64,000 bases of DNA from a virus (IMGVR_UViG_3300025087_000689); one strand, 5' to 3'. Counted from the stretch's first letter, positions 1 to 43,197 are shown. Notes: a model not told the origin generated them from the sequence alone. A program made the numbers and translations.

Positions 1-1674
1 CCCGAAAAATTTCGCGGTTATAGTTCAGGTTCATTAATCGTTACTGATAGGTCAGTCGAATCACAATTTGTAGATTTTAATTTACCTTTGTTTTATGAAT
101 ACCAGTTGATGTATGATTCTTATTTGATGGATCCTTCATTACCTGATGGATTTTTAATTATCAGAAAAAATTTCGAATCTCTAGTTAATCCAGATAATTA
201 TGTTCTTGAAACTAGACTATTCCCAACCAGTAGTGGCAGATATAGTAGTGATTCTACTTCTGGTTTTCTATGGGGTACTAGACCTATCTCAGGTAATGTT
301 GTTACATCACGACTTCTTTTACCTGCAAGAGAGAAGGATAATTTTTATACCGTCGAATATAATAAGTATATTAACGACACAATTCAAGAACATTACAATG
401 AATTTATTAATGAACAAGTTTTATATAATTCTAATGATTATACTATAACTCCTAGTTCTATTGTTTTAGTGGAGGGAGGAGATATTGTTTCTGGTGCTAT
501 TTTATATGTTCAAAGACAACCAGATTCATATATAAAGATTAAAAGTCCTTTTTACTCTAATGATAAGTCTAAGGTTTTACCATGGCAATTTCAAGTATCA
601 TGTGGTGAGTTTTTATTATCGTCTGGTATTTTTGGTGGAAGTAGGTCTTACTATGTATCTAATGACTACGTGAGTGGGTACTACGCGAGTGGTCATATAG
701 TTAATTCTGAGATTCCACAGTTTATTAACAAGAATATAATTAAGGTCGGTGTCACTCCTTTATATACGTCTGGTTCTATATATCCTACTTATTCAGTGTC
801 TAATACTATATTATCAGGCACAATTAATGGCAGGTATATCATAGATAGAATTTCTTCTATTGATTATAATAATGGTTATATTTATCTTAAACAAGATATC
901 AAACCAACAGATAGTATTCAATTAACTTATATTTATGATTATACGAAGACTATTCTCGCTGGTAGTATTGATCTTAATCCAAAGAATACAATTAATGCGA
1001 ATGTCGATATTGCGTTAGATTCTGTTGGACTTGTCGTTGTTCCGTCTGGAACTACATTTTATAACTCTAATTCCGATCCAAGTGGATGGAGTTATTTAGC
1101 TTATTATCCCATGAGTGATAATATTAGTGGTGATTTCTCAGCTGGTATTACTAAGGGGTACGCTGTTGAAAGTGCTACTGAAGCAATGATGCAAGGTTGT
1201 GTTTCTGGATTAATACCTTCTGGATCTAGGCTGATTGGAATTTTTTCATTAAATTCATTGTCTAATGACATGGTGAAGGTTTATGATGCTCGTAAATCTG
1301 GAGGATATATTTCTAGTGATATTAAGGCTATAAGTGGATGGAGGGGATTTAGTGATATTGGATATTGGGATGGTGAGCCTTTTCCACATGCTGGAACATT
1401 GGTAATACAGATACCTTCTGGAGTATACCGTGAAATATATGAGCTTTTTGATTCAAATACAGAATATACACAACAAACATCATTATACACACCTGATCTT
1501 ACCAGGATTATTGAACGGGATGTTTCATCTTATGATAGCAGAGAACAACATATTCATAATGATGTTAAAAAATATATAAGAGACACAATAGAAAGATATT
1601 TGCCAGCTGGATTTTTATATATTATAGTTGATGAGAACTTTAATCCGTGGTCTTCTATACGGGGTGAATCCTAA
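1..1674 (+). CDS. Putative virion structural protein (tail/baseplate region), 5'-truncated, Ser-Gly rich
   Basis: Frame is open from base 1 (PEKFRGYSSG...) to TAA 1674, so the TTG at 88 is not the true start. First of a tightly coupled run of large beta-rich ORFs; no enzyme motif. Confidence 0.45.
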   Translation, partial: PEKFRGYSSGSLIVTDRSVESQFVDFNLPLFYEYQLMYDSYLMDPSLPDGFLIIRKNFESLVNPDNYVLETRLFPTSSGRYSSDSTSGFLWGTRPISGNVVTSRLLLPAREKDNFYTVEYNKYINDTIQEHYNEFINEQVLYNSNDYTITPSSIVLVEGGDIVSGAILYVQRQPDSYIKIKSPFYSNDKSKVLPWQFQVSCGEFLLSSGIFGGSRSYYVSNDYVSGYYASGHIVNSEIPQFINKNIIKVGVTPLYTSGSIYPTYSVSNTILSGTINGRYIIDRISSIDYNNGYIYLKQDIKPTDSIQLTYIYDYTKTILAGSIDLNPKNTINANVDIALDSVGLVVVPSGTTFYNSNSDPSGWSYLAYYPMSDNISGDFSAGITKGYAVESATEAMMQGCVSGLIPSGSRLIGIFSLNSLSNDMVKVYDARKSGGYISSDIKAISGWRGFSDIGYWDGEPFPHAGTLVIQIPSGVYREIYELFDSNTEYTQQTSLYTPDLTRIIERDVSSYDSREQHIHNDVKKYIRDTIERYLPAGFLYIIVDENFNPWSSIRGES

Positions 1675-3971
1675 TGTTTATATTTGAAGATAAAAATAAC
1701 GATTATTTAAATCAAGAAGTTGATTTAAGATTAAGTGAACTAACATCGCAAGGTTTAATTAAATCTGAAGAAGAATATAAACGCGTCATTCAAAATACAC
1801 TTAATAGTATTGATGCCGATCTTCAGCGTATTACAGATGTTAAAAAATATGCAGTTAAAAGCGATGAGACTATTTCATCTAAACAATTAAATGAACTTTT
1901 CACTGATTTAGAATCAGATGTTAGAATTTTACATAAAGAGATCTCTGATATTCATCATGTTATTGATCTTACTTTTGATCGAAATAGATTATTTTATAGA
2001 CGAATTAAAAATAGAATAGCCGCTATTTGGAAAGAAATTCAACATTTTAGAGAGAATACATTTAATATTGAAGCGAGTAATTATACGTTTTTTGAATCAT
2101 TCAGTGAAAATTCTGTCATGCATTTAAGTGGACTAACCATAGATAAGAAAACAGGGACTCTAGTTTTAGCTCCCGGTTATATTAATTCGTTTAGTGATTC
2201 ATCTGATATTGCATCTATTGATATGAGTCTATATCCAGCAGCGAATAAAGATGGTGGAGTTATTGATACCACAAATATTAAAAACACATTTGACTATAAC
2301 TATAGTTCTGGAGATCACACACTTCTTAAAGATGGTCTTTGGAAAGTTCAAATGTTAACTGCTGATATACCAGAGATCATATTAGATATATTTGGTAGAG
2401 GAATGAATCGTACATATCGGGGTATTGTGACTAATATTGAAATAACATTCACTAGCCAAAAAATTATTAACGAAATCAATGTAGATCCTTATGGTGATTT
2501 TTCAACTAAGGTTATTGGTGTACGATATCAGGTTGATGAAACATCAACTGAATGGCTTGATGTAGTGGATGAGAATGGAGTAACAGTTACTAGTTCAGAT
2601 GTTGATTGGATAGTACTAAGAAATTTCGCACCTATATCAGCTAAGAAGTTACGTATATATTTTTATCAACCTAATTATCAGATCATTAGTCGGCTTCTAA
2701 ATAGCGTGGATAGCATGGTAGATAAGATGGTTAAAGCTCTTATTGAACAGCGTTTTGAGAAAGTTAATTATAAATATAAATCTAAAGATCAATTTCCAAA
2801 ATGGGATACATCCGAGGAAGCAGATCTCTACGATGAAATTATGAAAATTATCGATGAGGGTGGTGATATTAGTACACTTGAATCTCAAATTACAAACTTA
2901 TTAGTACCACAACCAATAGATATCTCTGCTGATATTAGAAATTGGAAATTATTTAATCTCGGTGCTTGGTCTATTGATCCAAGAAATGTCGCCTATTCTC
3001 CTCAATCTACTGGAGTATATATTTCTCACGACCCTAGAGATCATACATCTGGATTTAAAGTAACTAATGGAGTTCCAAGTTATGTAAAATTATATACACA
3101 GCAATCGGAACCTTCCACTACATCTATTGAATGGTCTCTTCTTGTAGATACAGATAATGTTAACTATAAAGAGATTCCGATTATTCCTAATAATGATATA
3201 TGGAGAAATGAAACTGCCAAATATAACGAACATTTGAATCTTAAATATTATTCTCGTGCGGCCAGACAAGTGGTAAATCATAAAAATATGTATAATGTTT
3301 TTAAATTGGATTTCCCTATTCACCCAGCATATATTGCATCTATCGTAATTACAGAGAATGGTTTACCTTTAGCCGCTAGTAACTATCGTTATTTTGAATT
3401 TTATAATAGTACTGAACTTTATGTTCCGAATGCGGATTTAACTAATAATGGGATATATACTATCAAGTATATACCAGCTATGTTGGATACGGTTAAGTGT
3501 TGGACAATTATTCCAAATACCTTACCAAGAGCAGGACAAGTTGATATCGGAACAATGTGTGTTTTTGCTACTAAACAAGCGGCTATCAATATGGTTAATC
3601 TTTTAAAACAATCTATTACAATAGCTAATAAACCAAAAAATGTAGTTGTATCAAAAGGATATACTATAGTGTCTCAATTATGCACTGTCAAAGAATATAA
3701 CTTTTGGTTTTTAAATGGAACAGTTAATACATTTATTGATAGTGCACTGGATAATGACAATGACAGAAATAATCAAATAAGTTGGTTTGCCACTAATGAT
3801 AAGAATTTTAAATATAATATGAGTGATACTCGAGTAACATGGTTATTTAGAACCAATGTTTTTATTACACAGAAAGTAACGCCTTATAGTGAAAATGGAT
3901 ATGATGAATATACATGGAAAGAATTACCGGCTGCTGTTCCATCTGTTAAAATAAAGGAGATCCAACACTAA
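1674..3971 (+). CDS. Putative virion structural protein, 765 aa
   Basis: TAATG coupling to the previous ORF. N-terminal coiled coil then FFESFS...IDKKTGTLVL module shared with the 4771 and 11155 ORFs. Confidence 0.45.
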   Translation: MFIFEDKNNDYLNQEVDLRLSELTSQGLIKSEEEYKRVIQNTLNSIDADLQRITDVKKYAVKSDETISSKQLNELFTDLESDVRILHKEISDIHHVIDLTFDRNRLFYRRIKNRIAAIWKEIQHFRENTFNIEASNYTFFESFSENSVMHLSGLTIDKKTGTLVLAPGYINSFSDSSDIASIDMSLYPAANKDGGVIDTTNIKNTFDYNYSSGDHTLLKDGLWKVQMLTADIPEIILDIFGRGMNRTYRGIVTNIEITFTSQKIINEINVDPYGDFSTKVIGVRYQVDETSTEWLDVVDENGVTVTSSDVDWIVLRNFAPISAKKLRIYFYQPNYQIISRLLNSVDSMVDKMVKALIEQRFEKVNYKYKSKDQFPKWDTSEEADLYDEIMKIIDEGGDISTLESQITNLLVPQPIDISADIRNWKLFNLGAWSIDPRNVAYSPQSTGVYISHDPRDHTSGFKVTNGVPSYVKLYTQQSEPSTTSIEWSLLVDTDNVNYKEIPIIPNNDIWRNETAKYNEHLNLKYYSRAARQVVNHKNMYNVFKLDFPIHPAYIASIVITENGLPLAASNYRYFEFYNSTELYVPNADLTNNGIYTIKYIPAMLDTVKCWTIIPNTLPRAGQVDIGTMCVFATKQAAINMVNLLKQSITIANKPKNVVVSKGYTIVSQLCTVKEYNFWFLNGTVNTFIDSALDNDNDRNNQISWFATNDKNFKYNMSDTRVTWLFRTNVFITQKVTPYSENGYDEYTWKELPAAVPSVKIKEIQH

Positions 3972-4771
3972 TGGCAACTCCTAATTATGCTATTTTAGCT
4001 CAAGGATATTTAACTCGTTTAGAGAGTATTAAAAAAGATTTGCAGGCTGGAAATTATACTGATTCCAGTTTAGATAAAACTATTACAACTCTTAGTACTA
4101 TACAATCTACTATTAATTACTTTGGTTTTTTAAATATTGTTACTAGTCCGCAGACTGCTAGAATACCAATTTTGATTAGATATATTTATAACTTAATTAA
4201 GGTTTTGAGAGATTTAATTAAACAAAATTCTGAGATAATGTATCCACCAGAATATGTGTTTCCTAAGAATCCAAATCTAGTCCAGTATCTTGAACCACAA
4301 AAAGTAATAAACGAAATATATAAAGATGATGGATCTGGATTAAAATTTGAATTGGGATTTACTGGGACGTTTAATGTTATTAGAACTAAATATCCTCCAT
4401 ATCTTGATAGATCTTTTTTTGATTTTAAAAATCAAGAATGGACAGAAAAACAAATAACAGTTAATATAGCAGATAATCCGAATGTAAAAGATATAACACC
4501 ATACTTCACAAGTTCAGTTGTTAACTTTTCTGGTACATCTTCTGGAATACATGATAAGATAGTATATTACTTTGATGGAGAAAAGATTGTAACTAACTTT
4601 GATTTTAGTAATGTTGATGATAGAAAAACAGTAAAAATTTCATATAAGAAGCTTTTAAATTCACTGCGAGTCAAAGCTACTTTAAGAACTAATACACTTG
4701 GAATTTCTTATTATACCCCAGTTGTAGATCAGTATACTTTATTAGTAGATAAACAAAGGGTTCTAAACTAA
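3971..4771 (+). CDS. Hypothetical protein in structural operon
   Basis: 266 aa ORF, TAATG-coupled on both sides. Confidence 0.5.
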   Translation: MATPNYAILAQGYLTRLESIKKDLQAGNYTDSSLDKTITTLSTIQSTINYFGFLNIVTSPQTARIPILIRYIYNLIKVLRDLIKQNSEIMYPPEYVFPKNPNLVQYLEPQKVINEIYKDDGSGLKFELGFTGTFNVIRTKYPPYLDRSFFDFKNQEWTEKQITVNIADNPNVKDITPYFTSSVVNFSGTSSGIHDKIVYYFDGEKIVTNFDFSNVDDRKTVKISYKKLLNSLRVKATLRTNTLGISYYTPVVDQYTLLVDKQRVLN

Positions 4772-6291
4772 TGGATACCATTCGTAAACAACTAGTTGAT
4801 GATAAACGAGCTAATGATATATTTGCTCGTGTAAGACTTCGTTTATCAAATGAAAGAATTAAAACAAATGAGAAATACCTTGAAATATTGATTGATGAAA
4901 TAAATAAATATTTTTCTGATTTATCTACTAGCACTATCAATTCGAATGATCTTCCAGACGAGAGAACCGGACCGTTAGTTAATAACCATAATAAATTATT
5001 AGTAGATATTGCTTCTGATTTAGATAAAGTAAATAAAAAAAGAATAGAGGTACAATCAGTAATTACCAAAGCCGTTAATTATTTATCAGCTGAGAGAGTT
5101 AGTGTTAATAACGCCGTTAGTAAAATGCATGCTAGAATTATTAATCAAAAATTAAGAACATCAGCTAATGATAGACATATAACATTTTTTTCAGAGTACT
5201 TTACTAATGATAAATTCGTTGATAAAAAGTTAAGTAAAAATGTCAGTGTTGATTCCGCTTTAAGTGCCTTGACTCTTTCATCTCTAGTTGAGAATAAAGA
5301 TAATTCTAATATGATAGATACCAATGAAATATTTGTGGAAGTTAAACTTAAAAATAATGAATCAGTAAATAGATTTGCTATTTATCCAGCGAGTCAACCT
5401 ATTAATCAAATACATATGGCTGGGTTTGGACGCACCGTTACTAACAATGATGTAATAACACCAATGAAAAACTTAAATAGTGCTGGTACAAATTCTGAAA
5501 AATATAATAATATTCAGAAACAATGTGTAGTTACGGGTGAGATTACAGATCCTTTTACATTTGGTGAATTTGAATTAATATTTAATGATTTTAAAAATCA
5601 AAATCTTCGTAACACCATAATTAAGTCTATTAAAAGATCAGTTCCAAATGCCGCTAACTTAGATGTAGATCCCCAACATGTTGTTACTAATAGCACAGGA
5701 CCTTTAGGTTCGTCTTTTAATGGTGCATATTATCTTCCTAATAAAACTATAGCCACGGATAATGTTGTTTTAAAAGAGTTAATTCAATCTGTTGGATTAA
5801 AGTTTAAATTAAAACAAGGTCAATTACGTGGATTACTATCTTATATACGGATTAACTTTGTTCCATCTGAAACTAATTTATCTATACCTCAGATAAATTA
5901 TAACGAATCTTATATTAAAGATTCTAATGGTATTATTTATAAACCATTTAAAGAAATGAAATCTGTTATAAATGGCGACGTCGAAGATAGATTGCTTATG
6001 TTAGATTCAGTTGTTGTGTCACCTATAGAATTTTATATTGCTTTTCAATTACCTAACCTAATAGCTATACCTATTAAAAGCTATACTGGTCTTTGTTGGA
6101 AAGTAAGATTACATGGTTCTGATGTGACTGGATATGCTAGTGATAATCAAGTGTTTACTTCTTCATCTAATAAGTATATCTTTGTATATCATGATGTTAT
6201 TAGAGATGCATCAGATACAAATTTTCAAGATATTAATAAATCTCGATTAAAAGAAATAATGTCACATTATGATATTACCACTTTAACTTAG
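4771..6291 (+). CDS. Putative virion structural protein, 506 aa
   Basis: N-terminal coiled coil plus FFSEYFT...VDSALSALTL module, like 1674 and 11155. Confidence 0.45.
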   Translation: MDTIRKQLVDDKRANDIFARVRLRLSNERIKTNEKYLEILIDEINKYFSDLSTSTINSNDLPDERTGPLVNNHNKLLVDIASDLDKVNKKRIEVQSVITKAVNYLSAERVSVNNAVSKMHARIINQKLRTSANDRHITFFSEYFTNDKFVDKKLSKNVSVDSALSALTLSSLVENKDNSNMIDTNEIFVEVKLKNNESVNRFAIYPASQPINQIHMAGFGRTVTNNDVITPMKNLNSAGTNSEKYNNIQKQCVVTGEITDPFTFGEFELIFNDFKNQNLRNTIIKSIKRSVPNAANLDVDPQHVVTNSTGPLGSSFNGAYYLPNKTIATDNVVLKELIQSVGLKFKLKQGQLRGLLSYIRINFVPSETNLSIPQINYNESYIKDSNGIIYKPFKEMKSVINGDVEDRLLMLDSVVVSPIEFYIAFQLPNLIAIPIKSYTGLCWKVRLHGSDVTGYASDNQVFTSSSNKYIFVYHDVIRDASDTNFQDINKSRLKEIMSHYDITTLT

Positions 6292-6299
6292 GATAATAC

Positions 6300-9200
6300 A
6301 TGAGTTTTTATAAAAATAATTTAATTGATGTTGGTTTAAATCAAGTAATATATACTGTTACTGAACAACCATATTCTTTTAATATTTGTTCATTAAATAA
6401 TGTTGTTACTCCAAGTATATCTGGAAATTTAAATTCAACAAGAATTAGAGTTCCTTTTGATATGATTGTATTTGGTAGGGTTCGTTTATTAACACTATCC
6501 ACTAATTCACTTAATTGGGAATATTTTTGGAGTAATACTACTACATATGCTCAAACTAACTGTATGGTTGGTGTTAATCAAAATTATTTTAATAAAGTAG
6601 GAACTACGAATACAGCTACTTATGGATGGCCTGTTCCGATATATGGTGGAGTCAGCGAACCAAAATTTTATTATTCTATTAATCCAACAAGTAGAACATC
6701 TATTCCAATCAATACAGGTGGTAAACCATGGGCTTATTTGGAAAATTTTATTGCCATGCCTGTGGCTAATGGAACTAGAAGTTATTCAACAACTATAATC
6801 AGTATCACCGATAGTTATCAAGAACTTCAACGTGAACTACAGTATGATAGCTCAAATGAGATTATACATTACATCACTCTAGCTAAGTATAGTTTTAAAT
6901 ATAAAGGTTTAATACAAACACAATTATATCAATCACCATTAGAATATATGCGAGGTCCTTATAATATTACTTTATTATTGGATTTTAAATATCATATTTC
7001 TAATCCTACCAAATTAGTTGGTCTCGATATTCTAAATAAATATATTCTTAATATTGGTGAATCTACTGGTATTAATCCGTCTGTAAGTTTAGTTCCCGGT
7101 GGAACTTGGAGTATTGGTGTTGATTTTGGTTCTTTTCCAACGACTAGTTTTGGTGTTAGACAACCAAGCGTATTCAAATATACTTTAACTCGAACAAGTG
7201 ACACGTTTTTATGGAACGACCATAAGATATATTATCCTACAACAGTTGATCAATCTGAAATAAATAAATTTAGTTCTTTTCAAAGCACACCAACGGAATC
7301 CGGTGTTTGTGTTTTATATGAACAAGGAAGATTTCGTACAAGTGAATATTTTCATTATGATCAAAATGGAGTTCCGGAATTAGTTGATTGGAGATTATCG
7401 ATAATAGAAAAAAGCCATTGGGTACCTGAGAAACGTGCTCCAGCATCAAGAGAATTAAGTAGATATAGGACGCTTCCTTATGTATGGTCTCTTAATCCTA
7501 GTGGTGTTATTAATACCACTGATGGAAGAGCCTTTCCCATTCTTTCTCCAGTTCGTCAGACATATAATAGCCAGTACTGTTCGTCAGCTATTTTTTCTCT
7601 TCCCGATGAAACATCTAAATATACTATTGAATTGCTTCCACTTTATGGATTCAATGTAGTGGCTAGTAACTTTCCTGGCGGTATTGGTTCAATGGTAGCA
7701 TTGAATGATAAAAGTATTAAAGCACAAGAAAGAGAATTACAGATAGCTGGAGTGACTTATACAACCGCTGGAGATGATTTCTATATTCTTTATATTCTAA
7801 CTAGAGAAAATCTATACATGCATGTAATATATGGAAATAATAACTCGGCAATATATACTTATCCTGGTAGAAATAATATCATTGGTGTATATAGTAACTC
7901 TCCATTATCTGAAAATCTAACATGCGAGTATCTTACTACGGTGCAAAAGACTTTATTCTTTACACTGGAGACTAAGATTTATAGAATAAATATGTCTTCT
8001 ATGATTCCTACGGCTTCTCTAAATACTGAAATAACTGATACAGCTGTTAACTATGATATACTTTTAACTTTTTCAAATAAAGAACAGGCAAACGAAGCTA
8101 AGAAACGTATTGATTTAAATCAATGGGAAGTTAGAACTACAACAGGTCAACTTATTACTATTGATAAAAAAGAATCTCGTGTCGGAAAGAGAGACGGCAC
8201 TGACTTAGAGAAAGTATATATAAGAATAAATCTTATACAATATCTTCGCGATAGTGGTGCTTTAGTGGTAGAAAATCTAAAACTATATGTTAGGGCTATT
8301 GATTTTCATGTACCTTACATTATAGTATGCACTATTACCGTTGATGGTAGAATATTACAACTAGGAAGTTTGACATTTAATTATAAAGGAATAACTTGTA
8401 ATGTTCCATTAAGTGCTTCCTTTGCTAATGGTGTTATACATACGACATTAAATGATTTAAACACTAGTACTTTTACTGTTAGTGCACCTGGTGATGTAGC
8501 TAATGTGCTCTCCACTAAATTAACATGGGCTGCGGATAATCAAAATTGGATGACTGTTGGTGAATGTACATCAAGAGAAGGGACTGGTTCCTCAGGGTTT
8601 TTTAATAATGCATATCCTGCTAAATATCTAATATGGAATAAAAAGAACCCCACAGAAACTCAATTTCTGATTCATGGTAATACTTCGACGCCAGTAAGAT
8701 CAAATACAGTTTCCGGTAATGTTGGAACTAATAGCGGATTAAAACTCGTTGTAACCAGTAAGTGTTACGAAAAAAAAGAATACATGTTGCCTCAAATAAC
8801 AGTGTATGATGATCATAAATTTATAATTGGAAAGATATACAATGACAATTTAGTAGATATAGATAGAGTTCCAAATGGATTTTCGACAAATTATTCTGTT
8901 AAAAATAATAATATGTTTGTTCCAAAATTAAGTGATAATAATAATTATGCCTATACATTTAACTTTAGATGCAGTCCTAATTATTTAGATATAACTGGAA
9001 GATATACTATTTATTACGAGAATGATACAAGCGATCCTATATCTGGCCGTATTAGTACACCAATGATTAAACGCTGGTGGATTATAGGTATACCAGTTAA
9101 ACAAGATAATCCTTATTTACCATATGTTAATTATATTCGTGGTATTACTGCTGATGGAGGTGCAATTACTTTAACTAGTGGCACGCTTAATGAGGTATTA

Positions 9201-9599
9201 ACTGAGGGTGTTTATCCTCCAACTAGAATAACAGAATATAATTTTGACTACAAACATCGTCCGAATTATGCTTATAGATCTGTTTCTAGAGCTTATCTTC
9301 ATAATGAATATACAGATAGACTTGTTCTACATGTTACTAACGCGACAGGAAATACCAATTGTGGAACGGTTTGGACTAGTGGAACTTGTACTGTTCCTTC
9401 TGGTTATATGGATTTTAAAGATGTTCAGTTTTCTGATTCTAATTTAGGTATTGCATCATTAACAAGTGGTATGATTCCTAATGGTTTATATGGCATATTT
9501 TTTATAGTTGAAGATACAATAGGCCATAGAACTGGTATTGATTTACTTCAGTTATCGACTTCTACTCAACTACCAGCATCTGGTGGATTTAATTATTAA
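6300..9599 (+). CDS. Large beta-rich putative tail/baseplate protein, 1099 aa
   Basis: Long ORF rich in T/S/N/Y/G; Ser-Gly-rich C-terminal third; no catalytic motif recognised. Confidence 0.4.
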   Translation: MSFYKNNLIDVGLNQVIYTVTEQPYSFNICSLNNVVTPSISGNLNSTRIRVPFDMIVFGRVRLLTLSTNSLNWEYFWSNTTTYAQTNCMVGVNQNYFNKVGTTNTATYGWPVPIYGGVSEPKFYYSINPTSRTSIPINTGGKPWAYLENFIAMPVANGTRSYSTTIISITDSYQELQRELQYDSSNEIIHYITLAKYSFKYKGLIQTQLYQSPLEYMRGPYNITLLLDFKYHISNPTKLVGLDILNKYILNIGESTGINPSVSLVPGGTWSIGVDFGSFPTTSFGVRQPSVFKYTLTRTSDTFLWNDHKIYYPTTVDQSEINKFSSFQSTPTESGVCVLYEQGRFRTSEYFHYDQNGVPELVDWRLSIIEKSHWVPEKRAPASRELSRYRTLPYVWSLNPSGVINTTDGRAFPILSPVRQTYNSQYCSSAIFSLPDETSKYTIELLPLYGFNVVASNFPGGIGSMVALNDKSIKAQERELQIAGVTYTTAGDDFYILYILTRENLYMHVIYGNNNSAIYTYPGRNNIIGVYSNSPLSENLTCEYLTTVQKTLFFTLETKIYRINMSSMIPTASLNTEITDTAVNYDILLTFSNKEQANEAKKRIDLNQWEVRTTTGQLITIDKKESRVGKRDGTDLEKVYIRINLIQYLRDSGALVVENLKLYVRAIDFHVPYIIVCTITVDGRILQLGSLTFNYKGITCNVPLSASFANGVIHTTLNDLNTSTFTVSAPGDVANVLSTKLTWAADNQNWMTVGECTSREGTGSSGFFNNAYPAKYLIWNKKNPTETQFLIHGNTSTPVRSNTVSGNVGTNSGLKLVVTSKCYEKKEYMLPQITVYDDHKFIIGKIYNDNLVDIDRVPNGFSTNYSVKNNNMFVPKLSDNNNYAYTFNFRCSPNYLDITGRYTIYYENDTSDPISGRISTPMIKRWWIIGIPVKQDNPYLPYVNYIRGITADGGAITLTSGTLNEVLTEGVYPPTRITEYNFDYKHRPNYAYRSVSRAYLHNEYTDRLVLHVTNATGNTNCGTVWTSGTCTVPSGYMDFKDVQFSDSNLGIASLTSGMIPNGLYGIFFIVEDTIGHRTGIDLLQLSTSTQLPASGGFNY

Positions 9600-9612
9600 G
9601 AGGTAATGAACA

Positions 9613-11145
9613 GTGAATATTAATCAAAGAGGTATAGTTTCGGGTTTTTTAAAAGCCACGGATATATCTGTAAGTGGTTTAGCTCCTTATTTTTCTATCG
9701 GTAAACCATTACCAGTACCAGCCATTAGTATATATGTTAGCGGCACTTTAACTGATATAGAGAGTCAATTAGGTAATTATAAAGATAGTGAAATTAGTTT
9801 ATATGCTTGTGCCGTTCCATCTGGAACCAATGGACCTGTTAGTGCAGTTGATTTATTATCAGGATATGTATTGGGTGGTTATGGTCAACTTCCATGTAGA
9901 AAGATTGAAGGTTCTACTTTATTCCCTTCTCATAGCACATGTACAATTACGAAAGTTTCTATTAGTGGAGTCCCTCCTACGTTTACTACTATAAGTGGAA
10001 ATACATATTATGATATATATGCTACTCATGTTCTTACAACTATTACTGATTCTAAAAGAGTCGTGGCTGGATATGGCACTCTTCAGGTATTAGGTGGGTA
10101 TTTAACACAAGCTCCTTATCCAGATCTTAGTGAACTTAATTCTATTATAGAAGATCATGGTGAAGTTGTAACGAATAATACACTTATGACATTTGTATTT
10201 CGGTTTCCAGAAACATTGAGTTTGTTTGCGAATAGTGGTTCTTTTGGAGCTGGTTATCCTGATTTGGCTGCATCAGGTATGATACAAATGAGTTGTTCTG
10301 GTAATTATAGTGGTGTGTATTTTCCAGCTACTTATGATGGAACTAATGATAACATCAATCCAATTTATCAGTATCTACAGCCAAGTGGTACTATAACATG
10401 GAAGATTCCAAAAAAATTTACTGTTAATCCGGATGTTTATGGATGGTATACGTTTCGACTTAATTATATTAATTCCTCTGGTTTGTTATCACCTACTGTT
10501 AATATTGAATTTTTTAGTCGTCAATTAAGGAATTTTGATCAAGCTATTCCAGCGTTACCTGATAACTATCAGATTCAAGATGGAGATATAGCAGGACCTT
10601 ATGTAGTGACTGTAGAAGGTGAAACGGCTCGCTCAAGAATATCTTTGGGTGTCCGAGATATAGATTTGGCTGTAGTGCAATACAATGAGAATGGTACTTA
10701 TATATCATCTCCATACACTAGCGAAAAACCGATCTATGGTCTTAGTATGGAAGTTAATGAGAGTGCACCTAAAATAACAAACTTTAATATATGGGATATG
10801 GTCAAATATTATATACAGTTTGATATTAATGATAATGGTAAATGGTATCAAATCTCACCTAAACCAAGAATAAATGAATTGGATATCAACGGAGTTAACG
10901 TTCCAAATATATTCTTATTAGATAGTAATTTATTCTCTAATGATAAAGTTCTAGATATATATAATATGATATCGTTTATTGATCTAAATAAAGAACAATA
11001 TAATTTTCGCGTAAAAATAGAACTTAATACTAATATAACTGGTTCGCATGGACAATGGACTCCCCAAATATATGATTATAAAATATCAGTTATAGATAGA
11101 GAAGCATTACTTGCTTCTAATTATGAAAGATATCTTTTTAATTAA
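9613..11145 (+). CDS. Putative virion structural protein, 510 aa, Ser-Gly-rich N-terminal half
   Basis: GTG start after AAGAGG RBS; operon context. Confidence 0.4.
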   Translation: MNINQRGIVSGFLKATDISVSGLAPYFSIGKPLPVPAISIYVSGTLTDIESQLGNYKDSEISLYACAVPSGTNGPVSAVDLLSGYVLGGYGQLPCRKIEGSTLFPSHSTCTITKVSISGVPPTFTTISGNTYYDIYATHVLTTITDSKRVVAGYGTLQVLGGYLTQAPYPDLSELNSIIEDHGEVVTNNTLMTFVFRFPETLSLFANSGSFGAGYPDLAASGMIQMSCSGNYSGVYFPATYDGTNDNINPIYQYLQPSGTITWKIPKKFTVNPDVYGWYTFRLNYINSSGLLSPTVNIEFFSRQLRNFDQAIPALPDNYQIQDGDIAGPYVVTVEGETARSRISLGVRDIDLAVVQYNENGTYISSPYTSEKPIYGLSMEVNESAPKITNFNIWDMVKYYIQFDINDNGKWYQISPKPRINELDINGVNVPNIFLLDSNLFSNDKVLDIYNMISFIDLNKEQYNFRVKIELNTNITGSHGQWTPQIYDYKISVIDREALLASNYERYLFN

Positions 11146-11154: not shown

Positions 11155-14100
11155 ATGGAGTTAGATAGAGTTCGAAAATTTCTTTTTGAGAAAGTTAAAA
11201 ATAATATTATTCGCGGTAAAATAACTGGTTTATCCGAATTACCTAGCGATGAAGCAATAGAAAAAGAAATAAATAATATTCTAAGTTCTTCATCTAATGG
11301 GATTATTGGTTCTATTTCTACTTTTGGTAGAAAGACTACATCTGATCCGAATGTTTATGGAAATAATTTTTTAACTATTAAAGATAATATCGAGTATATT
11401 TTGGGTGAAGTATTTGATAGTTTGAATAATACTATTGATATTATTAATAATTCAGTGTTAGAAAAGAATCAAATTCTCCGTGATTTGAAAATGATAGACA
11501 GAGATTTTTCTGATATTGAAGCTGGAACGTTACACAATGATGGAATGAAATACTTAATATCAGATTCTTTTACCGATACAGATAAAATTGATACTGTTAG
11601 AACGACAACACAATTAAATTTAAATGCCGGTACAGCTTCTCTTAATACCACAAGGGCTTCATATATAGGATTTCCTCATTATCGAAATCAAACAAGTATT
11701 AATTTTACTATAACGGAGGGGATATCACAAATTGTTAAACAACAACAATCTCCAGAAACAAAATTTGGGAATATCTTTGATGGTGATGATACAGATAGAT
11801 GGGAATTAATTATAACCACGCTTAGACCTACTGTATTGGAAGGTTATTTTAATCTTAAATTATCAGAGATAGGTGCTAGTGTAGAAATTAATAGAATTAA
11901 AATGAAGTTTTCAGGTACTAAAGACGTGACATCTGGAACAGATAATCTGACCTTTTTTTATATGAATCAAGATGCTATTGATAAAACTTGGAAAATATTA
12001 CCTGATGGAAAATTAGAAATTAAAAATGCCGAAATAGATTTTCAGTTTCCTACTATTCAGACTACTCATATAAGAGTTATGTGGACTAAATATGAACCAG
12101 ATGATGTTCAGAATCTTGAATACTTATTTAGTATTACAGAACTTAATGTTCAGAAAACTAGCACAGCATTCGAATCAACACTAATATCCAATTCAATGAA
12201 GTTAACTCCTTATCAGAATGAACAACCTACTATATTTACAGCTGAACTAGATGTTGATAAACAAGTTCAACCTGGAACTAATATAGAATTTTATATTGGT
12301 ATCGATAATACGATACCTGGTAAAGTAGTGGATGCTAATTCGAATGTAGTTGATATTGATGCTAAAGATGCCGTGGCTTTTGTTCCTAATGGAATAGATT
12401 CATATGGCAATCCTGAAAACTACTATACATTTGCATCGCTATTAAGAGATCATCCTTATTTATCTGGTACTTTTCCATATCAAGATTGGCAACCTAAGTG
12501 GCAACAATTATCATCCATTAAAGATATTGGAACAGCATTACCTAATCAGTTATATTTTAATGTTTCCGATTTTGATAAACCAGTACATGATTTATATTAT
12601 AAGAGTCCTGTATTATGGGGTGATCCTGCTTATACAGGCCCATGGCCTGTTACAGGTGCTGACTGGGCTGATAATTGGGACGGCACACCAGGAGCTTTTC
12701 CTAAGTCTGGTTATATTTGGGGTGAAGATCCTTTAAGTAGTGCTGGTGTTTGGTGGGGTGATTCTAATGAGTATCCTGGTTGGTGGAGACCGATGACACC
12801 TTCTAGTTCAGGAATTCATTTATCTACGCCCATGATATCTATTCCTGATTTTATTATTCCTGTATATGATGTCGACGGCACTCCTGTTTTAACGTATGAT
12901 CCATATTATAGACGTCTTGTTCCATTACAAAAGAAATTTTGGAAGATATTCAAATGGCCGTCATCTTCTTTACCTATACCAGGAACGATTAAACTCAGTA
13001 ACAAACATTTAAAATCTACTGGTACTGCTAATGATAATAGAAATACATGGAAATGGAATTACAAGAGTAAGAAAACTATAAGTGATTATGTTATTAATTT
13101 TACTCTACCTAATAATGTTAATTTCTATACTATTAAACTAGAAGAATTTTTACCTGGAAAATCAGATATTAGAATTTTAGTTGATTCTATTCGTGATGTT
13201 AAATTTTTAAATATAACACCTTCTGAAATTACGGACTTTCAAGTAGAATATGGTTTTGAATATGATAAGGATGAGAATGGATTATATTATAAAGTAAAAT
13301 CACCTGATTTTCTAGATGACGCACATGTAACTATTGTATTTGCAGATAGTGTAATTGCACAGAGGCGTGCATTAGGTGGCGATATAAAAATATCTCTAAC
13401 TATAAGTTATGAGGCTAAAACTGATGTAACAGCATCATGGGATGGATATCTTCTTGTTCCTGACGGAGTTACTACATTGCCAGTTTGCCACTTAGATACA
13501 AGTATTGGTTCAGTTAATAAAATTACTGTGCAGCAGATTAATGATAATGGTTTAGTTCAACAAACTAAATCCATAGAACAAAATCAACCAGATCCATTTC
13601 AGAATTTTAGTTTATATACTGGTTTAAATCTTGTACGTATTTTTGTAGATGTTCTTTCAACACAAGATGAGAGTGTTGGTGATGAACTCGCTACTTGGAG
13701 ACCAGATCAATATTTATTTGATATCGAAGAGACTATTAAAATGCAGGGTAAGTATTCTGATCCTGATTCTATTAATTTTACAACTGAGTTTGAACCCAAC
13801 ATTATTACTAATAAAAATATTGACTTCTTAGCTTCAGGTATCGTAGAAGGTGTGACTATTAATGTTCAACCTTATACGTTACAGGAAGGTGTTAAAGTTA
13901 AACAAGATAGAGAAGATATGGTTATTATAGCTGTTACTAATAACACTATTACATTACTTCCTTCTGTACTAACATCTGATTTTTACGTAGAAGAGTGGTC
14001 TGTTAAAGATTTCACTAAACGGACAACTTTTACATATGATGAAAATATAACAACACATCAAGGAACTAATTATCTACGACAGGTGGATATTAATGTTCTA

Positions 14101-14661
14101 TTATACGAAACTCCATTTGACGACGATACAAAATATGCTTTATTGGATGATGTGGATGGTAGTAAATATATTGTTGTAAAATCTCCAGATCCAAGTCAGT
14201 TTCCTAGAACAATAAGAAACATATTTCATTTCACTCGCACGTACTGGGATTATTTACTTGGTCAATATGTTACTTTTACAACAGGTACTAGTGGAAATAC
14301 GGGTGCATCACCTAATCTTTTAGCCACTGCATATGAAACGGCGACATCTCTAGTTAATACACCTGCTAATACCTTTGTTGGAGTTAATTATCCAAATGTA
14401 TCTACATACGGACAGTTAGTAAATGTTACTATGCCTAATTCGTCTGGATTCCTTTTTTGGGATACAGCTGAAAATCTAGAGGTTATTTATGATATTAAAT
14501 ACTCTTTAGCCGCTAATAACAGACCAGCGGATAGGATATTTTTAATGGCTAAATTCATATCAAGTGATTTAAATTTAAGTCCGGTATTGAATTCATACAG
14601 CTTAATAATCAATAATATGATACGGAGTACTAATGAGACCAAAATATCCTATATCCAGTAA
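11155..14661 (+). CDS. Putative virion structural protein, 1168 aa
   Basis: AAGGA RBS; shared N-terminal module (ISDSFTD...LNAGTASL); internal Trp/Gly/Pro-rich segment. Confidence 0.45.
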   Translation: MELDRVRKFLFEKVKNNIIRGKITGLSELPSDEAIEKEINNILSSSSNGIIGSISTFGRKTTSDPNVYGNNFLTIKDNIEYILGEVFDSLNNTIDIINNSVLEKNQILRDLKMIDRDFSDIEAGTLHNDGMKYLISDSFTDTDKIDTVRTTTQLNLNAGTASLNTTRASYIGFPHYRNQTSINFTITEGISQIVKQQQSPETKFGNIFDGDDTDRWELIITTLRPTVLEGYFNLKLSEIGASVEINRIKMKFSGTKDVTSGTDNLTFFYMNQDAIDKTWKILPDGKLEIKNAEIDFQFPTIQTTHIRVMWTKYEPDDVQNLEYLFSITELNVQKTSTAFESTLISNSMKLTPYQNEQPTIFTAELDVDKQVQPGTNIEFYIGIDNTIPGKVVDANSNVVDIDAKDAVAFVPNGIDSYGNPENYYTFASLLRDHPYLSGTFPYQDWQPKWQQLSSIKDIGTALPNQLYFNVSDFDKPVHDLYYKSPVLWGDPAYTGPWPVTGADWADNWDGTPGAFPKSGYIWGEDPLSSAGVWWGDSNEYPGWWRPMTPSSSGIHLSTPMISIPDFIIPVYDVDGTPVLTYDPYYRRLVPLQKKFWKIFKWPSSSLPIPGTIKLSNKHLKSTGTANDNRNTWKWNYKSKKTISDYVINFTLPNNVNFYTIKLEEFLPGKSDIRILVDSIRDVKFLNITPSEITDFQVEYGFEYDKDENGLYYKVKSPDFLDDAHVTIVFADSVIAQRRALGGDIKISLTISYEAKTDVTASWDGYLLVPDGVTTLPVCHLDTSIGSVNKITVQQINDNGLVQQTKSIEQNQPDPFQNFSLYTGLNLVRIFVDVLSTQDESVGDELATWRPDQYLFDIEETIKMQGKYSDPDSINFTTEFEPNIITNKNIDFLASGIVEGVTINVQPYTLQEGVKVKQDREDMVIIAVTNNTITLLPSVLTSDFYVEEWSVKDFTKRTTFTYDENITTHQGTNYLRQVDINVLLYETPFDDDTKYALLDDVDGSKYIVVKSPDPSQFPRTIRNIFHFTRTYWDYLLGQYVTFTTGTSGNTGASPNLLATAYETATSLVNTPANTFVGVNYPNVSTYGQLVNVTMPNSSGFLFWDTAENLEVIYDIKYSLAANNRPADRIFLMAKFISSDLNLSPVLNSYSLIINNMIRSTNETKISYIQ

Positions 14662-16052: not shown

Positions 16053-16054
16053 TT

Positions 16055-16426: not shown

Positions 16427-16537
16427 TTAATTTTAAAATTTCTTCTCTTAAGAGTTTGTTTTCTTGTTCGAGTTTTCTTAATTTGTTTTCTAAATATATT
16501 AGATTAGCAGCTAGTATCAAACAACTAATTCAATTCT

Positions 16538-26282: not shown

Positions 26283-26792
26283 ATGCCTCGGAGAATGACT
26301 TTATTAACAGATTTAGATATTAACAAATATAAAGAAGGTGACTTATTCTATGCACCTAAACTTGGATATAAAAGACAAGGTTATATTAAATTTGTTTCTT
26401 GTCCAAGATGTGGAAAGTTAAAGTTTGCTTACGCTCATAAGAATGGAACTTTAGAGAATCACGAAACTAATCCTTATTGTCGTTCATGTATTCAAATTGT
26501 TAACAATGAAAAATTAGGATTTCAAAACCATGCACGTTATAAAGCAGCTAAAATGAAAGATAGTCACGGTTATATTTCTATAACCATAGATAAAAATGAT
26601 TCTTATGTTTCAATGTGTAGACATAGTAAACGTGGACATATTATTTCTGAACATAGATATGTTATGGCTAAATCATTGGGACGATGTTTAAAAACACATG
26701 AAGTGGTACATCATTTACCGTTTACGATTTTACAAAATAGAATTAAATATTTAGAAAATGTTCTTAAGGAGAATAATATACAATATGATTAA
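26283..26792 (+). CDS. Zn-finger/HNH endonuclease with the HNH core deleted in frame
   Basis: CPRC...CRSC, EHRYVMAKSLGR...EVVHH runs straight into LPFTILQ, lacking the NG.K.DNR.ENL seen in the paralogue 55439-56008. Confidence 0.65.
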   Translation: MPRRMTLLTDLDINKYKEGDLFYAPKLGYKRQGYIKFVSCPRCGKLKFAYAHKNGTLENHETNPYCRSCIQIVNNEKLGFQNHARYKAAKMKDSHGYISITIDKNDSYVSMCRHSKRGHIISEHRYVMAKSLGRCLKTHEVVHHLPFTILQNRIKYLENVLKENNIQYD

Positions 26793-29349
26793 GAAAAAAA
26801 AGTTGCTAATTTTCACGGATTCTTTTTGTGTTTACACTGGTTTTTCCAACGTGGGTCGCCATGTGTCAACATATCTTCACAACACCGGTAAATACGAGAT
26901 AGCCTATCTGTGTTGGTTTCATGCACCTATGAATAATATAATTCCTCCTTTTACAATTTACACGACTATGCGTGATCATAGTAGATGTTGTGGCAGAGGT
27001 CCTGTTGTAATGAAAATGGTTCCTGGTCAGCAACCAGAATATTTTAGACATCAGCAAGGTGTATTACTTCCAGTGGGTCAGGGTGGACAGGTTTGTTTTA
27101 ATGGGCCGAATATGGAACATGATAAATATGCTTATGAAAGTCTTCATGGTGTTATTCTTGATTTTAAACCAGATATAGTATGGGGTTTGGGGGACACTTG
27201 GATGCAATTTCATACCAATATGATGGATATTAGACCGTGTTTTTCCTATTATGAATATTGTTTTTCTCCTGATACTGATATAATGACTAAAGAAGGTATT
27301 AAAAATATATCAGATATTAAAGAAGATGATTTAGTTTTTAGTATAAATCCAGAAACTAAAGAATGTTCATATAAAAAAGTTATACGAACTACCGAAAGGA
27401 ATTATATTGGTGATATGATTAGTATACAATCTATGCGAGTTGACCAATTAGTCACACCTGAACATAGAATTTTATTAGACTCCGGTGATTTTATAACTGC
27501 TATTGATGTTACTAAAAGATCTATTTCAAAATTACCAAGACCTTATAAAATATCAAATCATATTGGTGATAATGAAAGTACGATTAATATGTTAGATTAT
27601 TGTGATGATGATGCTTTTATATTAATACCTGTAAAATATAAATTACAATTATGTAATTCTTATTTATGTAATAGATGTGGTTATATTGGAACAACAGATC
27701 AACCAACAGAATTAAAATGTTCACAATGTAGATCAAGAAATGTACAGTTACATAACGGTGTTTTTAATAAAACTTTTTTAGAATCTCATCATTATCATCA
27801 TGAACTTGTTTATAAATTTAGAAAACATGAACTTTCTAAAGAACACTTAGAATTTATAATTTCTATTAATGAAGAATATGGTGATATTCGACTGCGAGGT
27901 GCCGATGATGAACATGATTCATTACCTATTCTAATTAATAAAAATGATTTATTAAAATTAGGGGGTTGGTTTATTAGTGAAGGTTCAGTGGAAAATAAAA
28001 ATTGTCATGTGTGTTCTTTATCTCAATACAAATATATAAAACAATTAACTGAAGATATTGAAAATATTGATATTCGTTTTAGTAAAGTTCCTAGTGGTTA
28101 TAAAATATATGGTAAAATAATGTATAACTTTTTTACCAGAAATTTTGGTTTTAATAGTTATACTAAAAAAATAGATGAGAGTGTATTTAATATTTGTTCT
28201 GTTGTTGAATTAGAATTATTATTTGATAGAATGATGTTAGGTGATGGATCTTTTAATAAGGCTTCTTATTATACTGTATGTAAACAATTAGCAAACGATG
28301 TGGTAAAACTTTGTTTTATTATAGGTAAACAAGGTATTATTCATTCTAATGAAATTATTAATAGAGTTGGTATATGGTCTGTAAATAACACTATATCTAT
28401 TAAACAAGAACACACTGAAATAATACAATATAATGGAATAGTGAAATGTTTATCAGTTGAAGATAATGGTACAGTTTTAGCCGGTAGAAATAATAAACTA
28501 AACTATATAGGTCAGTGTCCAATAGACGGGGAACCTATGCCCCATATTATTAAAATGGTTAATCAAGAAATCAATTGGGTTGATACACTTAATAAAGCCG
28601 ATAGAGCTTATGCCTTTTGTAATTTTGGTCGTGATACAATGATTAAAACAGGAGAGAAATATGGCGTTAATCTTAAAAAAGTTGGTGTTATATATCACGG
28701 CGTAGATATTAATACTTATCACAAACTTGATAATAAAAAAGGTTTAAGAAAAAAATGGTTTCCAGAAATTAAAGATGATGTGTTCCTAGTTGGTTTCTTT
28801 AGTCGTAATCAACCACGAAAAGCTGTTCATAAATGGTTTGAAGCTATCGCTCTTGGCGTTAGGAAGGGTTATTGGACGAAAGATACTTTACAAATGTATG
28901 GTCACTTTCCATGGAATGATGTTGGGTGGTACATACCCGATTTAATTAAAACTCACGGATTAGAAGAATTATTTATTAAACGAGATAAATTACAAGTGGG
29001 TATGGGTCCTTCTGATTCAGAAATGAATGAGTTATATAATTGTTGTGATTTAACGACGCTCCCAACTAGGGGGGAAGGTTGGTCTTTGACAATCAGCGAA
29101 TCTATGTCAGCTGGCACACCAACCTTAATATCAGCTTATAGTGCACATCATGATTGGGCTGAACATGCTGCAGCTAGAATTAAAATAGCTGTATTAGATG
29201 CTGAACCTTTAACTAATATAAATAGGGCTATAGTAGATGTTGATGATTACACAGAAAAAATAAAAGCCTTCTATGATAATATTAGTTTAGAAGAATTTGA
29301 AACTAAGTTTGGAAAAGTTCAAAGTTATAAAGATGAAACAAATAAATAA
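26785..29349 (+). CDS. GT4 (GT-B) glycosyltransferase, intein-containing; last helices lie in the next ORF
   Basis: KLLIFTDS..V.TGFSNV; Y|CPIDG; HGVD..TY; SRNQPRK; PTRGEGWSLTISESMSAGTP. Confidence 0.85.
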   Translation: MIKKKKLLIFTDSFCVYTGFSNVGRHVSTYLHNTGKYEIAYLCWFHAPMNNIIPPFTIYTTMRDHSRCCGRGPVVMKMVPGQQPEYFRHQQGVLLPVGQGGQVCFNGPNMEHDKYAYESLHGVILDFKPDIVWGLGDTWMQFHTNMMDIRPCFSYYEYCFSPDTDIMTKEGIKNISDIKEDDLVFSINPETKECSYKKVIRTTERNYIGDMISIQSMRVDQLVTPEHRILLDSGDFITAIDVTKRSISKLPRPYKISNHIGDNESTINMLDYCDDDAFILIPVKYKLQLCNSYLCNRCGYIGTTDQPTELKCSQCRSRNVQLHNGVFNKTFLESHHYHHELVYKFRKHELSKEHLEFIISINEEYGDIRLRGADDEHDSLPILINKNDLLKLGGWFISEGSVENKNCHVCSLSQYKYIKQLTEDIENIDIRFSKVPSGYKIYGKIMYNFFTRNFGFNSYTKKIDESVFNICSVVELELLFDRMMLGDGSFNKASYYTVCKQLANDVVKLCFIIGKQGIIHSNEIINRVGIWSVNNTISIKQEHTEIIQYNGIVKCLSVEDNGTVLAGRNNKLNYIGQCPIDGEPMPHIIKMVNQEINWVDTLNKADRAYAFCNFGRDTMIKTGEKYGVNLKKVGVIYHGVDINTYHKLDNKKGLRKKWFPEIKDDVFLVGFFSRNQPRKAVHKWFEAIALGVRKGYWTKDTLQMYGHFPWNDVGWYIPDLIKTHGLEELFIKRDKLQVGMGPSDSEMNELYNCCDLTTLPTRGEGWSLTISESMSAGTPTLISAYSAHHDWAEHAAARIKIAVLDAEPLTNINRAIVDVDDYTEKIKAFYDNISLEEFETKFGKVQSYKDETNK
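27259..28515 (+). mobile_element. Intein with LAGLIDADG endonuclease, C-terminal Gln (419 aa)
   Basis: Starts CFSPDTDIMTKEG, has LVTPEHRI block B, ends AGRNNKLNYIGQ followed by Cys; GWFISEGS and MMLGDGS motifs. Confidence 0.88.
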
Positions 29350-33602: not shown

Positions 33603-33609
33603 AATAAAA

Positions 33610-33666: not shown

Positions 33667-34500
33667 TTGAGAAAGTGTGTTAAATTGCGTACACTAGAAA
33701 ATACAAAGTTAGCCATACTAATTCCCTCGCTACAAGACTATGATTTTCTTAAACTTACGTTAAAGAGCATAGTCGAAAATACCAAAACTAACATCGAAAT
33801 TAAGATTCATTTGAACGCTGTTACTCCTGAAATGGAAGAATTAGCTATTCAATATGATCCAGAGTATACTAAATCATTAAGTAATCTTGGAATATCTCCA
33901 GCTATAAATATATGTTTTGACAGATCAGACGCTGATTTCATATTTATAGCAGAAAGTGATTTAGTTTTTCTACCTGATTGGGATACTTATTTAATCGAAG
34001 CTATGAATAAGTTTGGCGAAAATAATATCTTTCCAGTTACTAAGATACATCCATACGATGACGCACAGACTGTATCTTTAGTTAAAGATTATGGAAAATC
34101 TCCAGATACATTAGATTATAAAAGACTTCTATCTGAAGTAGATTCTCTTAGACAACCAAGATATCAGATTGCTAACTGTTCTCCTGCTTGTTTTCCAAGA
34201 CACTTACATGTTCCATTTGATGAAGCCTACTTTCCTGGCTGGGCTACTGATGTTGAGATGCATGTTAATGCATGGCAGCTTGATAAGAATGTACGCTATA
34301 TTAAATCAGAAAAAAGTTTAATCTATCATTTCAGATCTCTTGCATCTAAGAAGTTTTACTCAGACGATGAACGCTCAATGCAATGTGCTCGCTCAAACGA
34401 CATCTTTAATAAAAAATGGGAAGCTATTCATCCTGGTTTAAATCTAAATACATATAAAGATATTATAATGAAAAATTATAAAGGATATATTACCGAATGA
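33667..34500 (+). CDS. GT2 glycosyltransferase
   Basis: AILIPS, NLGISPAIN, AESDLVF, FPGWATD, IYHF. Confidence 0.75.
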   Translation: MRKCVKLRTLENTKLAILIPSLQDYDFLKLTLKSIVENTKTNIEIKIHLNAVTPEMEELAIQYDPEYTKSLSNLGISPAINICFDRSDADFIFIAESDLVFLPDWDTYLIEAMNKFGENNIFPVTKIHPYDDAQTVSLVKDYGKSPDTLDYKRLLSEVDSLRQPRYQIANCSPACFPRHLHVPFDEAYFPGWATDVEMHVNAWQLDKNVRYIKSEKSLIYHFRSLASKKFYSDDERSMQCARSNDIFNKKWEAIHPGLNLNTYKDIIMKNYKGYITE

Positions 34501-37123: not shown

Positions 37124-37131
37124 TAATAAAT

Positions 37132-43196: not shown

Positions 43197-43197
43197 T

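Follow-up and report, generated by a model that had tools for sequence, protein, structure and literature searches.

A conserved Ser-Gly motif in outer virion proteins of a giant phage from groundwater and soil, and its possible link to phage-encoded glycosyltransferases

The virus record IMGVR_UViG_3300025087_000689 spans 160 kb, and a stretch of 64,000 nucleotides within it, referred to here as the window, is the subject of this analysis. The first 16 kb of the window form the 3′ end of a long block of virion genes, whose products carry an excess of the dipeptide Ser-Gly (SG). This excess is a real, serine-specific and conserved motif that is confined to peripheral domains of the virion proteins. 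The serines of this motif may serve as O-glycosylation acceptors for the core glycosyltransferases of the phage, in a mechanism resembling that of the BAHT autotransporter heptosyltransferases, a reading to which a probability of about 40% is assigned. The window has a G+C content of 32%. The sequencing runs that contain its DNA are groundwater and soil metagenomes, with no RNA among the runs listed.

The expected number of SG dipeptides was conditioned on each protein's own Ser and Gly composition, with correction over 73 open reading frames (ORFs). ORF 88-1674 encodes 17 SG where 5.1 are expected (Poisson p 2.4e-5, corrected 1.7e-3), along with 4 of the reverse dipeptide Gly-Ser (GS) and 40 Gly in total. 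It is the 3′ portion of a gene for a 629-aa outer virion protein (1..1674 in the window, plus strand, 557 codons); the gene starts 215 nt ahead of the window. Over its full length, the protein contains 21 SG against 6.0 expected, and its orthologues of 624-629 aa are also SG-rich (2.7-4.0x). ORF 9613-11145, also on the plus strand, encodes a 510-aa protein with 13 SG, all of which reside within aa 1-289 (p 1.3e-4, corrected 9e-3). Its N-terminal half (aa 1-300, nt 9613..10512) has an expectation of 3.2 SG, and five of its sites are invariant across 9 homologues. The C-terminal domain (aa 301-510, nt 10513..11145) has 0 SG against 0.7 expected. The 1099-aa product of ORF 6300-9599 (plus strand) likewise contains 13 SG, with 9 in the C-terminal 339 aa (aa 761-1099, nt 8580-9599; 2.2 expected) and 4 in aa 1-760 (4.0 expected). 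The excess is thus confined to the C-terminal domain and is not significant alone over the whole length of the protein (p 0.013 uncorrected). The primase has 5 SG against 4.3 expected. An earlier note on this DNA, made from the sequence alone, had given hand counts of SG for these four ORFs, and of GS and Gly for ORF 88-1674, and every one of them was exact on recount. The ratio of observed to expected SG, which it had proposed for each ORF, has now been computed, and ORFs 88-1674 and 9613 survive the 73-ORF correction.

The window holds only the tail end of the SG-rich block, as seven further ORFs directly upstream are enriched 2.2-4.6x. A 674-aa protein encoded upstream of the window has 30 SG and 6 GS among 62 Gly. 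When the nine virion ORFs are pooled (6896 aa), there are 175 SG against 56.4 expected (z 15.8), while GS remains at its expectation (55 against 56.4). The dipeptides TG, NG, GG and PG are at or below expectation and DG is not enriched; NG, GG, KG and EG are depleted. Among all 400 dipeptides, SG is the sole outlier in these ORFs. As it is the only enriched dipeptide of the xG type, serine specifically is favoured before glycine. In the rest of the genome, SG falls to 127 against 153 expected (0.83x).

The SG-rich virion proteins are composed of 10.1% Ser and 8.0% Gly, which could invite an explanation through chance, composition, low-complexity S/G linkers or a motif at the DNA level. The probability of such an explanation is negligible, given that the z score above was obtained after conditioning on composition, that GS does not share in the excess and that the excess is kept in homologues at 27-57% identity. 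The SG dipeptides are encoded by at least 12 different hexamers drawn from both Ser codon families (TCN and AGY), and a DNA-level motif is ruled out as the cause on this ground. The codon family has been switched between phages at 20/98 conserved SG serines, in pairwise comparison with two relatives; in this respect the SG serines are no different from other serines (20% vs 25%).

Metagenomic homologues of two SG-rich proteins (42-57% identity) are all SG-enriched by 2.5-4.4x. The Ser of SG is identical in 63-69% of these homologues, compared with 37-46% for other serines, and pairwise comparison with the two relatives gives 57% conservation for SG serines and 34% for other serines. A profile search of 1.8 billion representative proteins with the 674-aa protein returned only twelve full-length relatives. 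All twelve, down to 27% identity, contain 18-30 SG each (3.4-5.1x), and no SG-poor homologue of this family was found among the representatives searched; IMG/VR has no relative of the family. About ten SG sites are invariant within it and the rest turn over, so that the number of sites holds while approximately half of the positions change. The view of the earlier note that the SG excess is a selected motif and not a product of composition is borne out by the mixed codons, the directionality, the domain restriction and the conservation.

The motif extends beyond the dipeptide. In the nine SG-rich ORFs it is described as aliphatic-x-[P/A/S/T/I/V]-S-G-hydrophobic-hydrophobic. Position -1 is occupied by Pro (2.7x) or by a small or beta-branched residue, and position -3 by an aliphatic residue. 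Positions +2 and +3 favour aliphatic or aromatic residues (1.5-1.9x), with Pro excluded at +2. Charged residues are reduced to 0.16-0.36x at -1, +2 and +3; for Asp and Glu the values are 0.30x at -1 and 0.36x at +2 and +3, an approximately three-fold acidic depletion. This flank signature is not present at other Gly of the same proteins, nor at background SG sites in the rest of the genome, in the virion proteins of Bacillus phage vB_BauM_KLEB27-3 (KLEB27-3) or in nine other phage contigs.

AlphaFold2 models were built from nine-sequence alignments for two of the proteins and compared using Foldseek. The N-terminal domain of the 674-aa protein (residues 1-270) is confidently modelled, with a predicted local distance difference test score (pLDDT) of about 85-95. 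Its matches are right-handed beta-helices: the Det7 and P22 tailspikes, Geobacillus virus E2 ORF18, AlgE6 and PL6 lyases. Many SG of this model are located in two-residue gaps between strands, at a spacing that is often near 16-17 residues. The model of ORF 9613 is weak (pLDDT 59) and resembles tandem FN3/Ig-like beta-sandwiches. With a predicted beta-helix in one protein and a sandwich-like fold in another, the excess crosses unrelated proteins and, on these models, folds. Paralogy or a shared domain among the SG-rich proteins was ruled out by all-against-all BLASTP and by hhalign of one pair (probability 0.1).

In a relative, a sheath-initiator (gp25-like) gene and a Baseplate_J-like gene precede the corresponding virion block. 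The block is therefore taken to belong to a giant phage with a contractile tail and to encode its outer baseplate and fibre proteins. A Baseplate_J family search in four records returned no match, and the capsid and tube genes fall outside the 160-kb record. Downstream of the block, the genes are arranged in the order Rad52, primase-helicase, ClpP, RusA, which is that of KLEB27-3 and Moorella phage MTATph1. These two are the only cultured phages with any protein match. The INPHARED collection has no DNA match to the window and, by tblastn, no match for ORF 88-1674, the 674-aa protein, the GT9-GT2 protein described below or a conserved 330-aa protein. The virion proteins match KLEB27-3 and MTATph1 only over short C-terminal or N-terminal parts. 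In the 510-aa protein, only the SG-free C-terminal domain is kept in these distant cultured relatives (KLEB27-3 gp056 and MTATph1). That domain matches phrog_21108, which is the only family found by Pfam and PHROGs searches of the SG-rich proteins; the 629-aa protein has no family in either. Ahead of the baseplate genes, upstream of the window, there are three giant ORFs of 2490, 2355 and 2431 aa (2560-24591 in the reverse-complement coordinates of the record). They are Ser- and Gly-rich without SG enrichment, and the third is depleted (4 SG against 10.8 expected).

The same phage encodes a large set of glycan genes at 26.7-47.2 kb of the window, comprising an intein-bearing GT1, a GT9-GT2 fusion, three further GT2-like proteins and genes for sugar tailoring and sulfate. 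All of these reside on the plus strand. The GT1/GT4-type glycosyltransferase (26758..29349; 433 aa without the intein in the relative) has PBCV-1 B736L as its best solved relative (E 2e-7). It is followed by a soluble two-domain transferase, a heptosyltransferase-like GT9 domain putatively of the GT-B type joined to a GT2, which is the candidate protein O-glycosyltransferase (29359..31344). A GT2 transferase (31934-32872) and a 260-aa GT-like protein (32820-33602) come next, and a variable sugar-tailoring cassette occupies 33667..47237. The sugar part of this cassette consists of a GT2 (33667-34500), a C-methyltransferase with an intein, a NUMOD3 endonuclease, an epimerase/dehydratase, a NeuD/PglD-type acetyltransferase, two DegT aminotransferases and a methyltransferase. 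The sulfate part consists of a sulfotransferase (42291-43196), CysD (43814-44704), CysN/CysC (44701-46455) and a TauE permease (46452-47237). The co-occurrence of SG-rich virion proteins with a large glycosyltransferase set, pointed out in the earlier note, holds up, with five soluble transferases encoded. TauE is the only glycan-operon protein with membrane segments. Pfam and NCBIfam scans revealed no priming transferase, flippase or oligosaccharyltransferase among the scanned ORFs. A set of membrane-free enzymes without genes of a lipid-carrier pathway fits with assembly of the glycan directly on a cytoplasmic acceptor.

The GT9 domain of the fusion protein matches PF01075 over aa 242-301 only (E 1e-7) and ends in a cluster of four cysteines, C307, C311, C316 and C323 (C-x3-C-x4-C-x6-C). 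This Cys4 cluster is invariant in 20 diverse homologues at 33-64% identity. There are more than 600 homologues of the GT9-GT2 protein. Many of their contigs measure 150-260 kb, and a homologue is encoded on 275 contigs of IMG/VR. GT9-GT2 represents a phage transferase family that is widespread and previously undescribed, and in which a metal finger is probable. Most of the homologues are fused further to GT1 (about 1050 aa) and are found on contigs of jumbo-phage size.

A 57.7-kb metagenomic contig is syntenic with window positions 88-50331 and allows the sulfate genes to be separated from the motif. In this relative, window 33602-47271 is replaced (13579-17374 there) by two methyltransferases, a DUF2334 (deacetylase-like) protein and two unknown proteins. 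The flanks of the replaced cassette are conserved, and the relative still has GT1, GT9-GT2, GT2 and the 260-aa protein. It has no sulfotransferase, CysD, CysNC or TauE in that slot, and its virion orthologues are equally SG-rich, so that the motif does not depend on the sulfate cassette. The earlier note had tied the motif to a sulfated glycan, and this part of its claim does not survive the comparison, an outcome that the note itself had named as refuting. The sulfate, amino-sugar and C-methyl cassette looks like a swappable glycan-tailoring module, as in O-antigen or flagellin glycan islands.

Further co-variation between motif and transferases can be followed in other phages. Neither the GT1 nor the GT2 Pfam family has a match in the KLEB27-3 genome, and MTATph1 has no match to the GT2 Pfam family (GT1 was not searched there). 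Their baseplate and fibre proteins, which are positional counterparts of the SG-rich domains and not orthologues, have SG at about 1x, including KLEB27-3 proteins annotated as Beta_helix, FN3 and Laminin_G. Nine whole viral contigs with a GT9-GT2 homologue were also compared, namely one termed G002 and eight with the fused form. The genome of the phage G002 (IMGVR_UViG_3300018031_000005) is complete at 168.6 kb and has terminal repeats, and its virion proteins have no relationship to those of the window phage. Within its virion module, downstream of the major head protein at 38-76 kb, there are nine SG-enriched ORFs (2.6-4.6x) with GS near expectation. Their flanks show Pro at 4.9x at -1 and aliphatic residues at -3 and +2. 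The five-residue motif as defined on the window phage occurs at 8.7x over shuffles in this module, against 0.5-2.0x elsewhere. The AS and PS dipeptides are also enriched in G002, consistent with [A/P]-S-G. Three more contigs of the G002 lineage have the same SG pattern in the one virion gene within reach; as their G+C content is 33-39%, low G+C is not the cause. G002 and its kin encode a split GT9-GT2 homologue. A TnpB/Cas12f-like (OrfB_IS605) gene lies within the transferase region of a G002-like phage contig (13941-15020).

In a maximum-likelihood tree of 106 homologues, the two SG-rich lineages form two deep clades, and in each of them GT1 and GT9-GT2 are split genes. A branch with 94% support has both clades on the same side, apart from the fused forms. 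Other than the transferases, nothing convincing was found among genes shared only by the two SG-rich lineages. Within 10 kb on either side of 80 IMG/VR transferase homologues, 3/1032 ORFs reach p<1e-3 for SG, the virion modules being mostly farther off. On these genomes, the association of motif and transferase is partial, with both present in two lineages, the enzyme only in eight and neither in two. A link between the motif and the conserved core transferases is possible.

The SG motif lies in peripheral domains, predicted to be beta-rich, of the proteins that make up the outer baseplate and tail fibres of this giant phage. It is proposed that its Ser would be O-glycosylated in the cytoplasm by the phage's own soluble transferases, before or during tail assembly. 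The conserved core would consist of GT1, GT9-GT2 and the GT2 proteins, with no lipid carrier, flippase or oligosaccharyltransferase involved. Modification would start at the beginning of a strand-turn-strand element, in the manner of the GT9-like TibC and Aah enzymes on beta-helical autotransporters. The swappable cassette, here for amino sugar, C-methyl and sulfate, would set the appearance of the glycan and not its site of attachment. A more specific version is rather doubtful: that giant phages of groundwater and soil coat their outer tail and baseplate with O-linked glycans at dozens of motif serines through a Cys4 GT9-GT2 of the autotransporter-heptosyltransferase-like kind, diversified by swappable cassettes, here yielding a sulfated, aminated and C-methylated sugar. 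If true, phages would gain their first defined sequon for protein glycosylation, and virions their first sulfated glycan.

A number of observations weigh against glycosylation at the motif. The eight contigs with a fused GT1-GT9-GT2 of about 1050 aa (33-39% identity) show neither an SG-specific excess nor any other dipeptide outlier, and the transferase family is therefore not sufficient for the motif. Two lineages and two GT-less outgroups are the basis of the co-variation. Where an SG site has lost one of its two residues, Gly is usually the one that stays (109 xG against 22 Sx cells), and the residues that take the place of Ser are mostly T, N or G, a pattern of ordinary tight turns. Hydrophobic flanks surround the sites, and P-S-G is similar to a common type I/II turn. 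SG does not coincide significantly with predicted strand ends (9/20 against a 37% baseline, p 0.3). The heptosyltransferase I/II/III models of NCBIfam match the GT9 domain with E 1e-6 to 3e-12, all far below their cut-offs. A phmmer search of GT9-GT2 against all PDB chains returned no TibC at E<=1, the best GT9 match being 3tov (E 0.023), and the Cys spacing given above differs from the Cys-339/342/358/370 of TibC. DNA or polymers of the host envelope are alternative candidates for the target of the transferases.

Several of these points favour a purely structural role for the motif, which is the main rival reading and almost as probable as glycosylation. The [P/A]-S-G unit would form tight turns or beta-arches between hydrophobic strands, where Ser caps the turn and Gly adopts a left-handed conformation, and the transferases would act elsewhere, such as on DNA or the host envelope. 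The better conservation of Gly, the T, N and G substitutions, the strand-like flanks with Pro at -1 and the all-beta prediction for the SG-rich regions are all in keeping with this role. In parts of the beta-helix, an SG roughly every 16-17 residues might represent a ladder along one corner, and most transferase-bearing lineages are without the motif. However, generic turns favour N-G, D-G and G-G at least equally, yet SG alone is enriched. Moreover, neither the excess nor the flank signature is seen in the beta-helix, FN3, LamG and fibre proteins from KLEB27-3, MTATph1 or eight further large phages, and a second lineage has the same five-residue motif in proteins that are unrelated. The constancy of about 18-30 sites per protein down to 27% identity, while around half of the positions change, also argues against turns alone.

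A different chemistry at Ser (phosphorylation, direct O-sulfation, acylation or cross-linking), or a recognition mark for an assembly factor, is improbable. The Ser specificity, conservation and restriction to peripheral domains would fit any Ser-directed process, and a sulfotransferase is encoded here. The relative without a sulfotransferase is nonetheless equally SG-rich, and no kinase, acyltransferase or cross-linking enzyme tracks the motif; the transferases alone stand out as shared by the two SG-rich lineages. To our knowledge, there is no precedent for such a Ser mark on phage tails.

The closest parallel to O-glycosylation of the motif is found among bacterial adhesins. TibC is a soluble GT9-like enzyme that modifies Ser, and not Thr, of the TibA beta-helix; Ser-313, within N-S-G-G, is one mapped site, and the sites follow a solenoid pattern (PMC4358343). 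Its substrate is recognised by a Cys4 iron finger (PMC4358343). The BAHT enzymes TibC and Aah act on TibA, AIDA-I and Ag43 (PMC4358343), as is also reported in PMC3835316 with reference to Charbonneau et al. 2012. The phage system may resemble these in its GT9-like domain with an invariant Cys4 and in Ser-specific SG sites within a predicted tailspike-like beta-helix and other beta domains. It differs in that the phage enzyme is fused to GT2 and the putative substrates are virion proteins of several folds. The phage motif and enzyme seem to resemble the BAHT system, of which they would be putative members only.

Phage-encoded glycosylation of virions is reported for mycobacteriophages on the C-termini of capsid and tail-tube subunits (Freeman et al. 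2023, as cited in PMC12619734). The window phage shares with these the phage-encoded soluble transferases, with virion-protein targets that are putative here. It differs in its transferase families and in the candidate sites, SG motifs that number in the dozens and are internal to proteins of the outer baseplate and fibres. Chlorovirus PBCV-1 and the fibrils of mimivirus provide a further example, with virus-encoded, host-independent cytoplasmic glycosylation and clade-specific clusters for sugar tailoring. Among solved structures, B736L of PBCV-1 comes closest to the phage GT1. The capsid protein of chloroviruses carries N-linked glycans at atypical sequons, and we know of no SG sequon in chlorovirus glycosylation.

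In animal proteoglycans, xylosyltransferase modifies Ser-Gly with acidic flanks (often SGxG) in an exposed, disordered context. The earlier note had drawn an analogy to these sites, with Ser-Gly acceptors carrying a sulfated glycan from the sulfotransferase/GT operon. Ser-Gly dipeptides and a sulfate-activation and sulfotransferase cassette do reside in one genome, the Ser specificity is common to both systems, and a sulfated glycan is possible in the window phage. The analogy breaks down at the sites themselves, as the acidic residues are depleted and the context is that of hydrophobic beta strands. The xylosyltransferase and linkage-region families GT14, GT7, GT31 and GT43 are also missing from the operon in the Pfam/NCBIfam scans, which detected only GT1/GT4, GT9 and GT2 and left small ORFs elsewhere outside their scope. 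As the sulfate and amino-sugar cassette is swappable and the motif persists without it in the syntenic relative, a proteoglycan-like system is very unlikely.

If the motif is a glycosylation sequon, it would offer a sequence-readable marker of virion glycosylation in uncultured phages. Such a role would also extend the strand-loop-strand mechanism of O-glycosylation from bacterial adhesins to virus particles and would account for the presence, in many large phages, of big glycan operons that lack export machinery. Should the motif be structural only, it would still represent a sharp, lineage-specific beta-turn rule in phage adhesins that is useful for recognising peripheral virion domains.

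The remaining virion-block genes of the window are all on the plus strand. A Gly-poor 765-aa protein (1674..3971) has 3 SG against 2.0 expected and is not enriched, as is the case in its orthologues. The adjoining 266-aa protein (3971..4771) has 3 SG against 0.7 expected, numbers too small for a verdict. A 506-aa virion structural protein (4771..6291), which matches phrog_21108 in its N-terminal part, has 0 SG. The 1168-aa virion protein at 11155..14661 has 8 SG against 4.9 expected, which is not significant, and its residues 92-393 match KLEB27-3 gp057. Beyond the virion block, the 330-aa protein on the minus strand (17680-18672) has 83% identity to its counterpart in the 57.7-kb relative, against 50-65% for the adjacent genes, and has no cultured-phage match.

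Three inteins are present in the window. They reside in the primase-helicase (19767-23393; 1208 aa against 829 aa in the relative), in GT1 (26758-29349; 863 aa against 433 aa in the relative without the intein) and in the C-methyltransferase (34497-36764), where the intein has a LAGLIDADG domain. Together with the free-standing NUMOD3 homing-endonuclease-like gene at 37132-37782, they amount to a heavy load of selfish elements inside 20 kb.

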